A DNA stretch of 64,000 nucleotides from NCBI GenBank assembly GCA_030600585.1, contig JAUVLU010000008.1, positions 6,431 through 70,430 on the forward strand. The letters run 5' to 3'. Origin of the DNA: Candidatus Cloacimonadota bacterium. Lineage in GTDB: Bacteria; Cloacimonadota; Cloacimonadia; Cloacimonadales; TCS61. The position numbers were made by a program, and so were the translations under genes. Each line of letters begins with the position of its first letter. Position 1 is the stretch's first letter. Positions 2,378 to 22,729 of this stretch are shown one piece after another. Under the pieces are notes generated by a model that was not told the origin of the DNA, did not search any database, and worked only from the letters and a program-made list of their open reading frames with translations.

Positions 2378-3799
2378 TTAGCTTTTGTTAGCTGTTTTTT
2401 TATGTTTCATTTTCAAAAAATCAATGCCGGTATTTTGTTGTGCTCGTTTTATCAGTTCTTCACTAATTCTGTTATGATCATTAATGAGTTTTTTCAGATC
2501 AATGTCTGCTTTCCCGTTTTTGATGCGGATATTTCCGTTGATGATCAGGTAATCTATGGGTCGCATTCTTTGAGTGAAAACGAGTGCTGCCGGCGGATCT
2601 GAAAGTGAACCGGCGTATTCCAAAGACTTGAGTGAGAATAAAGCTATATCTGCCTGCTTCCCAACCGATAACTCTCCAATATCATCTCTTCCGAGAGCTG
2701 CTGCGCCTCCGCGAGTTGCAATGCGAAGAACGTCTCGTGCCGTTAACCAAAATTCAGGTTTTCGCAAACGACTGAGCAGCATTGCCTGTCGTATTTCCGA
2801 AAGCATGTTGCTGGAATCGTTAGAAGCAGAACCATCCACACCCAAACTTACAGCCACTCCTGCTTTCAGCATCTCTTTTATTTTGGCAATTCCTGAACCA
2901 AGACGCATATTGGAAGATGGACAGTGAGAAATTCCCATTCCGCATGCTCCCATTTTTTTTATCTCTTCATCAGAAAGATGAACTGCATGAGCTACCCAAG
3001 CATTTCCGCTGATCCAACCCAGCGATTCCAAATATTCTGCAGGTCGCATCCCAAATTTTTCAATGCAGAAATTTTCTTCATCAATTGTTTCTGCCAGGTG
3101 AGTGTGAAACATCAGATTTTTTTCTTTTGCTAACTTAGCTGTTTGTTTCATCAACTCTGATGTTACGGAAAATGGGGAACAGGGAGCCAGCGAAATTCGT
3201 ATCATTGCACCGTCTTCAGGATCGTGATATTTTTCTATTAAGCGAAGAGAATCCTTCATGATCTCTTCTTCAGTTTGAACTACATCATCCGGCGGAAGTC
3301 CTCCATCTTTTTTACTTAATGACATCGAGCCGCGGGTTGGTTGGAAACGAATTCCCAATTTCTGAGCTGCATTAATTTCAATATCTATAAGTTCATTATT
3401 GCATTTTGTTGGGAAGAGGTAAAGATGATCGGAACTGGTTGAAACGCCGCTTAACATCATCTCGAGAAGTCCTGTTTGAGCACTTGTAAAAATAACTTCA
3501 TCATCAACTTCGCGCCATACTTCATAATGGTTTACTAACCATGGGAACAGCTCTTCATCCTGCATTCGCGGGATGTTCCTGGTTAATGATTGAAATAAAT
3601 GGTGATGTGTATTGATGAATCCGGGCAGAACAATCATTCCCGATGCGTCTATCTCTTCATCAAAATTTCCTTTATATTGTTGTTTGCCAATAGAAACAAT
3701 TTTATCACCTTCGATAAGTATATGCCCGCCACTCCATTCATCCATATCATCATTCATCGTAGCGATGAAGCTTGGATTTTTTATTAAGATCTTTCTCAT
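2378..3799 (-). CDS. Amidohydrolase-superfamily deaminase/chlorohydrolase (8-oxoguanine deaminase / MtaD-like)
   Basis: 473-aa ORF with LPGFINTHHHLFQSLTR, HLAET and GVDGSASND motifs characteristic of the cytosine-deaminase-like chlorohydrolase subgroup. Its start overlaps the maf stop (ATGA). Confidence 0.7.
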   Translation of the reverse strand: MRKILIKNPSFIATMNDDMDEWSGGHILIEGDKIVSIGKQQYKGNFDEEIDASGMIVLPGFINTHHHLFQSLTRNIPRMQDEELFPWLVNHYEVWREVDDEVIFTSAQTGLLEMMLSGVSTSSDHLYLFPTKCNNELIDIEINAAQKLGIRFQPTRGSMSLSKKDGGLPPDDVVQTEEEIMKDSLRLIEKYHDPEDGAMIRISLAPCSPFSVTSELMKQTAKLAKEKNLMFHTHLAETIDEENFCIEKFGMRPAEYLESLGWISGNAWVAHAVHLSDEEIKKMGACGMGISHCPSSNMRLGSGIAKIKEMLKAGVAVSLGVDGSASNDSSNMLSEIRQAMLLSRLRKPEFWLTARDVLRIATRGGAAALGRDDIGELSVGKQADIALFSLKSLEYAGSLSDPPAALVFTQRMRPIDYLIINGNIRIKNGKADIDLKKLINDHNRISEELIKRAQQNTGIDFLKMKHKKTANKS

Positions 3800-4374
3800 A
3801 ATATTTCCTCTAATAATTTGTAAAAGCGATATACCGGAAATCCCATTACATTAAAATAACAACCTGAAATTCTTTTAACGAATTGACTTCCCATACCTTG
3901 TATCCCGTATGCGCCGGCTTTGTCCATTGGCTCTTTTGTATTAATATATTCTTCGATCTCTTTTGCAGTAAGGTTCCTAAAAAACACTTTTGTCTTTTCA
4001 TAACCGGAATATATTTGATTCTTATAAGAAATTGCAACACCTGTATAAACGTAGTGATATGTGCCGGAAAGACGGGTAAGAAATTCTGCGGCTTGATATT
4101 TATTTTCAGGTTTTTCTAAAATGTCTGAATCCTGATAGACAATTGTATCACTGCCAACGATCAAATAATCGTTATCTACAATTTTTCTTATAGCAAGAGC
4201 TTTATTCTCTGCATGTGTTGTTACAAGTTTTCGTGGGTTATTGCAGAAATTGCTCTCATCGATATGAGCCGGCATTTGCAGTGCTGTTATACCGATCATC
4301 TCGAATATATTTTGTCTGCGTGGTGAAGCAGATGCAAGAATCACCTTTTTATTTTTTAAAATTTCATGGATCAT
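3796..4374 (-). CDS. maf: Maf-like nucleoside triphosphate pyrophosphatase
   Basis: 192 aa with VILASASPRRQ near the N-terminus and KAGAYGIQG near the C-terminus, both hallmark Maf motifs. Confidence 0.85.
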   Translation of the reverse strand: MIHEILKNKKVILASASPRRQNIFEMIGITALQMPAHIDESNFCNNPRKLVTTHAENKALAIRKIVDNDYLIVGSDTIVYQDSDILEKPENKYQAAEFLTRLSGTYHYVYTGVAISYKNQIYSGYEKTKVFFRNLTAKEIEEYINTKEPMDKAGAYGIQGMGSQFVKRISGCYFNVMGFPVYRFYKLLEEIL

Positions 4375-21410: not shown

Positions 21411-21869
21411 ATGAACAGTAAATATCCAGATGAATACTGGATGAAGTTCGCAATAGATGAAGCAAGATCGGCACTTCAAGAAAATGAGGTGCCGATCGGT
21501 GCTATATTAGTTAAAAATAACAAACTAATTGCCTCTGCACATAACCGAACAAACGCTGCAAATAACGGATTGGCTCATGCTGAAAAACTTGTTATTGAAG
21601 AAGTGATTGCAAGCGGTGAGAAGTTTTTATATGATTATACTTTGTATGTAACGGTTGAGCCTTGTCTGATGTGTGCCGGCATTATTATCTGGTCACGAGT
21701 TGGAAAGGTTGTTTTTGGTTGTTATGATGAAAAAGCTGGAGCTGCCGGTTCCATTTATAATGCTTTATTAGATAAAAATTTTAATCACAATCCGGAATTA
21801 GTATCTGGTATTTGTGAAGCAGAATGTTCCAAATTAATGAAAGACTTTTTTAGAAACAAAAGAAAGTAA
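21411..21869 (+). CDS. tadA: tRNA adenosine(34) deaminase
   Basis: 152 aa with HAE...PCLMCAG zinc-binding deaminase motifs and typical TadA length. Confidence 0.9.
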   Translation: MNSKYPDEYWMKFAIDEARSALQENEVPIGAILVKNNKLIASAHNRTNAANNGLAHAEKLVIEEVIASGEKFLYDYTLYVTVEPCLMCAGIIIWSRVGKVVFGCYDEKAGAAGSIYNALLDKNFNHNPELVSGICEAECSKLMKDFFRNKRK

Positions 21870-22036
21870 AGTAGCCACCCCAGTTAGTCAATGGGGCAGG
21901 CAGACTGACACTAAAGAACATTTCTTGTTCGCATCCGGCAGTTGCCGGATTGCGGACACAATTGGATTGATAAGTTTAACTTATCAACCAGAATAATGGT
22001 AAAGCGAAAATCAATATGTTAAGTTATTAATTATTT

Positions 22037-22198
22037 ACGGAGAGTCCTGCCGTGTTGCATAACACGGTGCCGGAGCGGTTGAATCCCACACAGTATGCAC
22101 TATGGCTGACGGGACATGTGGGGTGGTCTCGTCCTGATATAGATTAATGAATAATTATTTGCGGAGAGTTGCCGGAGCGGTTGAACGGGGTGGTCTCG
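22037..22198 (+). repeat. 162-bp direct repeat, copy 1: expanded tRNA-Ser 5'-half-like element + spacer + clean tRNA-Ser 5' half
   Basis: Matches 22514-22675 with 5 mismatches and no indels. It ends at ..GGTCTCG, which is anticodon position 35 of the tRNA. Confidence 0.95.
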
Positions 22199-22247
22199 CC
22201 CTGATATGCATCAGGGCGCCATGCCGAATGGCAAGGCGAAAACAAAA

Positions 22248-22502
22248 ATGTATTATGTATATATTTTAAGAATGAAAAATGGTCAACTTTATACAGGATT
22301 TACTTCTGATCTAAAGCGTAGAATGAAAGATCACGAGTATGGAAAGGTAAAGTCTACAAAGTTAAGACGTCCTCTGAAGCTGATACATTATGAAGCTTAT
22401 ATATTAGAAAGTGATGCCCGTAGAAGAGAGAAATTTCTGAAAACATCGGAAGGGAAAAAATTGCTAAAAAAACAAATCAGAGATTTATTACTTACGATAT
22501 AA
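22248..22502 (+). CDS. Small stand-alone GIY-YIG nuclease family protein
   Basis: MYYVYILRMKNGQLYTGFTSDLKRRMKDHEYG carries the GIY-YIG-type motifs (YVYIL ... YTGFT ... R..H) in an ~84-aa protein. Family members normally start at this M, so the upstream ATGs at 22206 and 22221 are probably not used. Confidence 0.8.
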   Translation: MYYVYILRMKNGQLYTGFTSDLKRRMKDHEYGKVKSTKLRRPLKLIHYEAYILESDARRREKFLKTSEGKKLLKKQIRDLLLTI

Positions 22503-22513
22503 TTACATTATTA

Positions 22514-22675
22514 ACGGAGAGTCCTGCTGTGTTACATAACACGGTGCCGGAGCGGTTGAATCCCACACAGTATGCACTATGGCTGGCGGGACATGTGGGG
22601 TGGTCTCGCCCTGATATAGATTAATGAATAATTATTTGCGGAGAGTTGCCGGAGCGGTTGAACGGGGCGGTCTCG
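22514..22675 (+). repeat. 162-bp direct repeat, copy 2 (its last 36 nt are the 5' part of the functional tRNA-Ser)
   Basis: See copy 1. The only difference in the tRNA part is C22668 versus T in copy 1. Confidence 0.95.
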
Positions 22676-22729
22676 AAAACCGTTGTGCTCTTACGGGTAC
22701 CCAGGGTTCGAACCCCTGACTCTCCGCCA
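22640..22729 (+). tRNA. tRNA-Ser (anticodon CGA), class II with long variable arm, CCA encoded
   Basis: Hand fold: acceptor GGAGAGT/ACTCTCC, D stem CCG/CGG with the GAGCGGTTGAA loop, anticodon stem GCGGT/ACCGT, loop CTCGAAA (anticodon CGA), long variable arm, T arm CAGGG-TTCGAAC-CCCTG, discriminator G, CCA. Confidence 0.9.

Follow-up and report, generated by a model that had tools for sequence, protein, structure and literature searches.

A small, selfish-looking cassette built around a GIY-YIG nuclease gene resides inside transfer RNA (tRNA) genes. It is described here from a stretch of 64,000 nucleotides (nt) of a Candidatus Cloacimonadota bacterium (GenBank assembly GCA_030600585.1, contig JAUVLU010000008.1, positions 6,431 to 70,430), referred to below as the window, where it occupies the gene for tRNA-Ser(CGA). 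In order, the cassette consists of a copy of the tRNA interrupted within a loop, immediately behind a CG, a pair of hairpins, a few more tRNA bases, a co-oriented gene for a GIY-YIG protein, and an intact copy of the same tRNA. This architecture recurs at many tRNA types and in several phyla. Sites are found empty, with one unit or with several, the hairpins covary, and older copies decay and gain solo hairpins. Together these observations probably describe a GIY-YIG cassette of homing or transposon-like type, which is directed at tRNA loops and keeps a working tRNA.

An earlier reading of the locus, the original prediction, had proposed that an element enters the tRNA gene within the anticodon loop and brings along a replacement 5' part, that the site has been occupied more than once, and that the small GIY-YIG protein is the only candidate enzyme. 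This interpretation is supported in its essentials, with the amendments given below.

The tRNA-Ser(CGA) locus

The window contains a single tRNA, which is preceded by several partial copies of itself. The features of the region, all on the + strand, are as follows.

22030-22198, +, first copy of a 169-nt repeat (expanded tRNA part, spacer and clean tRNA part), with six mismatches to the second copy at 22507-22675
22039-22131, +, tRNA-Ser(CGA) positions 1-36 in an old, decayed copy (the 'expanded half') that ends in ..GGTCTCG, from the four-copy alignment
22050-22067, +, solo hairpin CCGTGTT-gcat-AACACGG in the old copy, separating tRNA positions 7 and 8, from the sequence
22084-22123, +, second insertion of the old copy, CCCACA..TGTGGG, a degraded solo hairpin, from sequence and alignment
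22132-22140, +, TCCTGATAT, a truncated remnant of hairpin 1, from comparison with the complete hairpin at 22199-22216
22163-22198, +, clean tRNA-Ser(CGA) positions 1-36, broken after anticodon position 35, with one base (22191) different from 22640-22675
22199-22238, +, hairpin pair CCCTGAT-atgc-ATCAGGG CG CCATGCC-gaat-GGCAAGG CG, inserted at CTCG/AAA of the anticodon loop, from the sequence, the family alignment and covariation counts
22239-22243, +, AAAAC, the anticodon loop and stem continued past the break, from the sequence
22248-22502, +, GIY-YIG nuclease gene, 84 amino acids, Pfam PF01541
22516-22617, +, second expanded old tRNA part with a truncated hairpin remnant, from repeat search and alignment
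22640-22729, +, intact tRNA-Ser(CGA), the single tRNA found in the window by ARAGORN and Rfam (Rfam tRNA 51.3 bits)

The 169-nt direct repeat (22030-22198 and 22507-22675) was found by repeat search, with 96% identity and a period of 477 nt. For the 162-nt block inside it, an exact recount gave the five mismatches and the 477-nt period around the GIY-YIG open reading frame (ORF) that had been claimed. The D-arm string TGCCGGAGCGGTTGAA has four exact occurrences, at 22068, 22170, 22545 and 22647, where 0.22 are expected by chance. The four tRNA 5' parts that contain it all end in ..CTCG. When aligned they form two clean copies (positions 1-36) and two that are enlarged by the identical two insertions, just as had been described. 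Likewise, the yCCTGATAT reported behind the truncated copies was recovered: GGTCTCGyCCTGATAT occurs three times, at 22125, 22192 and 22602, and behind each expanded copy the yCCTGATAT is a truncated first hairpin.

The hairpin reported to span the junction, CGCCCTGAT-atgc-ATCAGGGCG at 22197-22218, is present but is not alone. A second hairpin, CCATGCCgaatGGCAAGG, follows at 22219-22236, and behind it come a CG and the bases AAAAC; these had been overlooked. Because the tRNA sequence breaks off at ..CTCG, is followed by two hairpins and then resumes as AAAAC, the hairpin pair is seen to be a clean insertion at CTCG/AAA. In related loci, which are given here by L-numbers, the tRNA bases behind the hairpins are AAAACC (L005, L014) or AAAACCGTTGTA (L003).

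Expansions like those of the window's old copy recur in the relatives L001, L003, L106 and L107. These 'expansions' are solo hairpins and belong to the hairpin family of the cassette. For example, CCGTGTT-gcat-AACACGG is identical to the second hairpin of locus L025, and a compensatory variant of it, CCATGTT/AACATGG, is found in L003. The L107 counterpart of the second insertion is TCCCAGTCATTCGACGGGA, which contains the family core GTCATTCGAC. Solo hairpins have also been detected at other positions of old copies in L040, L041 and L054. Repeated occupancy, with older halves that decay and acquire insertions, was part of the original prediction, and the solo family hairpins in old copies bear it out. 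The remnant TCCTGATAT (22132-22140) marks an older unit from which the ORF has been deleted, and the most plausible origin of the 477-nt repeat is that a whole unit was duplicated when it already held this older ORF-deleted copy.

Neither the 162-nt block nor its hairpins occur again in the 64-kb window, which argues against a generic repeat. Apart from tRNA and tRNA-derived matches, Rfam gave none in the window region (E <= 1) or in 18 related loci (E <= 0.1), and the expanded half is therefore not a member of some unrelated RNA family in that collection. Its folding is not significant (z = -1.15 as RNA, 22030-22250; z = -0.67 as DNA, 22039-22140), and it is not claimed as a structured RNA.

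Empty and occupied sites, and the family across phyla

Close homologs of the window protein share an hflK-hflC-tadA context. A metagenome scan with the window's TadA yielded both empty and occupied forms of this site. The empty ones, where an intact tRNA-Ser(CGA) comes straight after tadA and the nuclease gene is missing, are many and include L098, L099, L102, L103, L108, L124 and L130, whose TadA proteins are 84-89% identical to that of the window. Occupied sites from the same scan are L106, L107 and L109. One unit is present in L107, L109 and L005, and two in L001. The simplest form is L005, with a clean 5' part, two hairpins, AAAACC, the ORF and the intact tRNA. More elaborate forms also occur. 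In L001, which has the two ORF units, the sole full-length tRNA bears an enlarged 5' part, and no tRNA is called by ARAGORN at that locus; L003 combines one ORF unit with two ORF-less units that retain AAAACCGTTGTA behind their hairpins. Since empty, one-unit and two-unit sites occur among close relatives, the arrangement is an insertion and not an ancient fixed duplication.

The empty sites also delimit the inserted block, which amounts to about 350-480 bp per unit with one 84-amino-acid ORF. No recombinase and no ORF besides the GIY-YIG gene were found in the block, and the neighbours encode HflK/C, TadA and a lipoprotein. As the sole ORF in the inserted block, the GIY-YIG gene does encode the only candidate enzyme.

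A protein-alignment scan with one genome per species gave 80 loci. By record title these are from Cloacimonadota, Lentisphaerota, Victivallales, Kiritimatiellia, many Patescibacteria, Bdellovibrio-like metagenome-assembled genomes (MAGs) and MAGs labelled Gammaproteobacteria, although most loci lie on MAG or metagenome contigs and some labels may be wrong. The suspected adjacency of such GIY-YIG genes to tRNA genes is plain. In 74 of the 80 loci the ORF has a tRNA gene no more than 300 nt away, and the strand is identical in all of these. With some tens of tRNA genes per genome, chance would place only a few per cent of genes so close. The tRNA usually starts 3-36 nt past the ORF stop codon, and the adjoining tRNAs are of many types (Ser-CGA/GCT/GGA/TGA, Gln, Arg, Tyr, Lys, Asn, Thr, Gly, Glu, Cys, Leu and Pro).

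In nearly all loci the 5' part of the matching tRNA is found upstream of the ORF, broken in a loop. The T-loop (GGTTCG/AATCC) is the site in at least 22 cases, the anticodon loop (CTCG/AAA or CCG/AAG) in at least 12, and the D-loop in one. Entry into the anticodon loop thus holds for the window, but the family targets tRNA loops generally and mostly the T-loop. At the break, the hairpin pair comes first and is followed by 5-12 more tRNA bases. Identity between the broken and intact copies reaches 2 nt or less upstream of tRNA +1 in 18 of the 25 loci compared. A mirror layout occurs in L027, L052, L063, L074 and L076, where an intact tRNA is followed by the ORF, by T-stem bases with TTCG, by the hairpin pair and by the tRNA 3' part; the ATG of the ORF is then 0-8 nt behind the tRNA end. 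Tandem arrays are frequent, with three units in L045 and L025, and two in L014, L086 and L001.

The broken and intact copies are not always the same allele. In L017/L022, L047 and L057 their acceptor stems and variable arms differ by compensatory changes. This indicates two separate functional alleles, which would be expected of a cassette that takes tRNA sequence along with it. The notion of an imported replacement part gains support from these loci. In a neighbour-joining tree of the short protein, sequences from different taxa partly group by the type of tRNA.

ORF-less tandem units have been observed as well. In L016, three to four of them lie at 2345-2570, downstream of an intact tRNA-Lys(CTT), and each is made up of a spacer, then a T-arm whose loop holds a single hairpin, and finally the end of the tRNA on the 3' side. 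In L001, three tandem units of about 122 nt at 3495-3830 each comprise the tRNA 3' end from the T-loop (ATCCCTGACTCTCCGCCA) and the downstream flank, a duplication bounded by the T-loop on the tRNA 3' side. L130, where the site is otherwise empty, has a 13-nt internal tandem duplication (GGTTGAACGGGGC, twice) in the tRNA-Ser gene at about 960-995.

The tadA/tRNA-Ser site has features of its own. The adjacency of tadA, the gene for a tRNA-editing deaminase, to the tRNA gene is a deep synteny, and the order tadA then tRNA-Ser(CGA) is kept at 41-45% TadA identity in L155, L146, L153, L156, L157, L160-L164, L167 and L169. Small genes of more than one kind have also been inserted at this hot spot. 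For example, a gene for a 23S rRNA-intervening-sequence protein (Pfam PF05635, E = 3e-14) lies between tadA and tRNA-Ser in L100 (728-1099) and ends just upstream of tRNA +1; a truncated copy of this gene is present in L001 at about 2425-2640. Between tadA and the tRNA locus of the window, a 130-nt segment (21868-21998) contains three strong hairpins (DNA fold z = -6.6). It is present in L102, L106, L107 and L130 and absent from L098, L099 and L108, and its middle hairpin varies, being GCATCCGGCAgttgCCGGATTGC in the window and GCAAGTTgaaCTTGC in L102. This segment could be another small insertion, a small RNA or a terminator. Downstream of tRNA-Ser, the conserved motif GGGATGAGAAyCCnGTTCTTCTTGC has been detected in the Cloacimonadota relatives L098 (~890-920), L003 (~3825-3850), L005 (~3440-3465) and L001 (~3520-3550) and is not obvious in the window.

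Hairpins, nuclease and candidate mechanism

The hairpin pair has the consensus cg/CCnnGTCATyCGACnnGG cg CCnnGTCGrATGACnnGG cg/aa, with the slash at the boundary of tRNA and insert. The hairpins are about 18 nt long, each followed by CG. With a strict detector, the canonical pair was found within 170 nt in 58 of 87 ORF units, and variant hairpins occur in others; the same detector found TTCG (34) or CTCG (16) in front of the pair and AATCC (27) or AAAAC (12) behind it. Covariation supports two independent 7-bp stems, in which 13 of 14 base pairs are changed on both sides. A single long hairpin was also considered and is unsupported (83% of cells paired versus 80% in shuffles). The hairpin-pair pattern had 0 matches in viral collections.

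Such hairpins could themselves be the mobile unit, a miniature palindromic element like the repetitive extragenic palindromic (REP) or NTS/SRM repeats. The GIY-YIG gene would then be a trans-acting, possibly domesticated nuclease, and the partial tRNA duplications would be by-products of break repair at hairpin-bearing loops. Solo hairpins elsewhere in old copies (window 22050-22067; L040, L041, L054) fit this explanation, as do the ORF-less tRNA fragments with hairpins in L003, L016 and L047. The insertion is twofold-symmetric and flanked by CG, and the Ssn nucleases with their NTS repeats, treated below, provide a precedent. It is nonetheless unlikely, given that the ORF adjoins the broken copy, in the same orientation, in nearly all loci. 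There are also no copies off the tRNA locus in the 64-kb window, whereas Ssn repeats number hundreds of copies per genome, an abundance not seen here within the window.

Remnants of classical integrase islands are a far poorer explanation. Here the partial tRNA copies would be attachment-site (att) scars, with the GIY-YIG gene carried along passively or already resident at the site. An insert flanked by tRNA segments in direct repeat, with a crossover in the anticodon loop or T-loop, is indeed an integrase hallmark, and L001 and L016 have tandem 3'-end repeats. However, the insertion is only about 350-480 bp with no other ORF, no integrase is nearby, and in most loci it is the 5' part and not the 3' part that is duplicated. 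Neither a conserved hairpin pair nor a link to one nuclease family in 74 of 80 loci is expected of att scars, and the explanation is highly improbable. A group I intron with a homing-endonuclease ORF in the tRNA, or a broken tRNA and hairpins that act as the cis-regulatory leader of the nuclease mRNA, can be given as little weight, for although bacterial tRNAs have group I introns in the anticodon loop, some introns encode GIY-YIG enzymes, covariation suits RNA as well as single-stranded DNA (ssDNA) and the hairpins lie in the 5' leader at most loci, no group I intron or other such Rfam match was found (window E <= 1; 18 loci E <= 0.1), a complete tRNA with its own 5' part behind each unit makes splicing unneeded, the hairpins are downstream of the ORF in mirror-layout loci, and the empty sites show the whole block to be an insertion.

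The nuclease gene is, as first reported, a stand-alone gene, its product having 84 amino acids. It matches the Pfam GIY-YIG family (PF01541, E = 9e-16) as a single domain over residues 1-70, and Y3, Y5, Y15, G17, R25, H29 and E61 are invariant in the family alignment. Profile matches in the PDB are 1zg2 and 1ywl (E = 1e-12), the UPF0213 proteins BH0048 and EF2693. An AlphaFold2 model is compact, with a predicted local distance difference test (pLDDT) score of 90.9; the closest structures by Foldseek are UPF0213 proteins and the nuclease domain of the structure-specific endonuclease Slx1, with I-TevI far less similar. The protein belongs to the UPF0213/Slx1 branch of the GIY-YIG superfamily. 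For the window protein 952 homologs were found, and the family has 863 clusters at 50% identity (E <= 1e-10). Exact look-up of the 84- and 98-amino-acid forms of the protein returned no record, PADLOC and PHROGs gave no match to it, and in NCBIfam there is only a sub-threshold match to a group I intron endonuclease. The viral collections gave one weak match to the protein family, which is essentially absent from viral contigs; this near-absence makes a phage vector unlikely. A 'COG2827 RNA motif' upstream of such genes is unsupported by Rfam and by a literature search.

For the cassette as a homing-type or transposon-like unit, a mechanism can be proposed. The targeting of loops, the analogy with Ssn and the fold similarity to Slx1 suggest that the nuclease may be specific for structured DNA or ssDNA. 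It would cut tRNA-gene DNA, single-stranded or extruded, at the CG of an exposed loop. TTCG/AA sits in the palindrome TTCGAA and there is a CG on both sides of the insertion, and the flanking CG could be read as a 2-bp target duplication that follows a 2-nt staggered cut. Repair through the homologous tRNA sequence, with an occupied allele or a circle as donor, would copy in the hairpins and ORF and leave one intact tRNA. Tandem arrays such as the window's 477-nt repeat might arise by repeated events or by unequal exchange between tRNA parts. Co-orientation and the short or absent spacers suggest that the ORF is expressed from the tRNA promoter, probably by read-through.

Several points weigh against this account. 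Mobility and the role of the enzyme are inferred. The 84-amino-acid protein is a catalytic domain only, with no DNA-binding domain or extension. An intact, presumably cleavable copy of the tRNA persists beside the nuclease gene, which simple homing fails to explain. The hairpins are on one side of the ORF only, and there is no obvious second end of the element. A perfect duplication from tRNA +1 on a newly colonised tRNA type has no explanation in the scheme. The published pattern of Ssn repeats (SRM pattern HGTCWYN(0-2)YYVSBRHN(0-5)WNVSBRGN(0-2)RNCYNB) has 0 matches on either strand of the 80 loci and the window. The hairpin alignment was chosen by a pairing filter, and its percentage of paired cells is therefore circular, with covariation the informative part. 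The doubtful taxon labels mentioned above belong here as well.

A bolder claim can be put forward tentatively. The cassette might represent a prokaryotic mobile element of a new class, with a minimal hydrolytic GIY-YIG nuclease as its mobility enzyme. This nuclease would recognise folded single-stranded or cruciform tRNA-gene DNA along with its own hairpins and cut at the CG of the loop. Insertion would duplicate exactly the stretch between a mature tRNA end and the cut, which would disable the resident copy and supply a working one, and nucleases of the Ssn type would acquire a role as engines of such elements. If true, the disabling of the resident tRNA while a working copy is supplied would make the element hard to lose.

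Significance and comparison with known systems

The finding is best seen as a free-standing GIY-YIG selfish gene with hairpin partners, and there is a real chance that it stands for an element of a new class. The known mobile DNA would gain a very small element, of ~0.4 kb, that targets tRNA genes without an integrase. Broken or 'expanded' tRNA copies that confuse annotation in Patescibacteria, the PVC group and Cloacimonadota (e.g., L001, with no ARAGORN call) would be accounted for as well. A natural function is suggested for single-domain GIY-YIG nucleases with hairpin partners. The nuclease is compact, and dozens of natural insertion junctions show directly what it seems to target, a CG in a tRNA-like loop. 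The original prediction knew of no described system of this kind. For the architecture this stands, since no description was found in the literature searched in full text; partial precedents do exist, in T4 SegB and in Ssn with its NTS repeats.

Integrative elements that target tRNA genes by means of tyrosine or serine recombinases insert in the anticodon loop or T-loop and restore an intact tRNA, with a tRNA segment left behind as direct repeats; where a site is occupied in tandem, several partial copies result. Loop targeting, tRNA regeneration and partial tRNA copies are found with the cassette as well. In contrast to those elements, which are several kb or more in size, the cassette has about 0.35-0.5 kb and no recombinase, it usually duplicates the 5' part of the tRNA, and it has a conserved hairpin pair at the junction. 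From a group I intron in a tRNA anticodon loop it differs in having no Rfam intron match and a complete tRNA after each unit.

The insertion sequences (IS) of the IS200/IS605 family and the REP elements with their RAYT proteins are defined by hairpins, enter DNA immediately on the 3' side of a short target sequence, and are believed to work on ssDNA; gene-less miniature derivatives occur. These systems are also discussed in the paper on the Ssn nucleases (PMC11893778). Their enzyme is an HUH Y1 transposase that forms a covalent intermediate. The cassette is similar in that it is a hairpin-defined DNA element beside a short target sequence. Its sole enzyme, however, is a hydrolytic GIY-YIG nuclease and not an HUH Y1 transposase, its hairpins are on one side of the ORF, and its target gene is partly duplicated.

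SegB of phage T4 is a free-standing GIY-YIG homing endonuclease in a cluster of tRNA genes. It recognises the T-arm motif GGTTCRANTCC of tRNA genes, makes 2-nt staggered cuts, and spreads its own gene and adjacent tRNA genes into genomes without it (PMC2330249). The cassette resembles it as a GIY-YIG gene among tRNA genes that is most often inserted at GGTTCG/AATCC, and it shows a trait of the SegB type in its presence/absence polymorphism at a conserved site (empty versus one or two units). SegB is encoded by a phage, has several domains, recognises a site of 27 bp and cuts near the tRNA 3' end, and it is accompanied by neither a hairpin pair nor a partial tRNA duplication. The cassette protein, in contrast, has 84 amino acids, is encoded on bacterial chromosomes and lacks a C-terminal DNA-binding module.

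The Ssn proteins are single-domain GIY-YIG ssDNA nucleases of about 90 amino acids whose genes are flanked by cognate hairpin repeats, NTS/SRM (Chenal et al. 2025, PMC11893778). Their authors remarked on the IS-like architecture; NTS has hundreds of dispersed copies, and tRNA is unmentioned in the text of that paper (PMC11893778). The window protein is likewise single-domain and, with 84 amino acids, agrees in size with the type (about 90-100 amino acids), and it has hairpins beside its gene; this comparison with the Ssn family (cd10448) is one of description, and the closest solved structures are UPF0213 proteins. The cassette hairpins differ in having the cores GTCATYCGAC or GTCGRATGAC and, in the window, in being confined to the tRNA loops at the locus. 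Ssn cleaves ssDNA a few nt upstream of its hairpin (PMC11893778), and by analogy a cut of this type would fall at the junction of tRNA and hairpin in the cassette.

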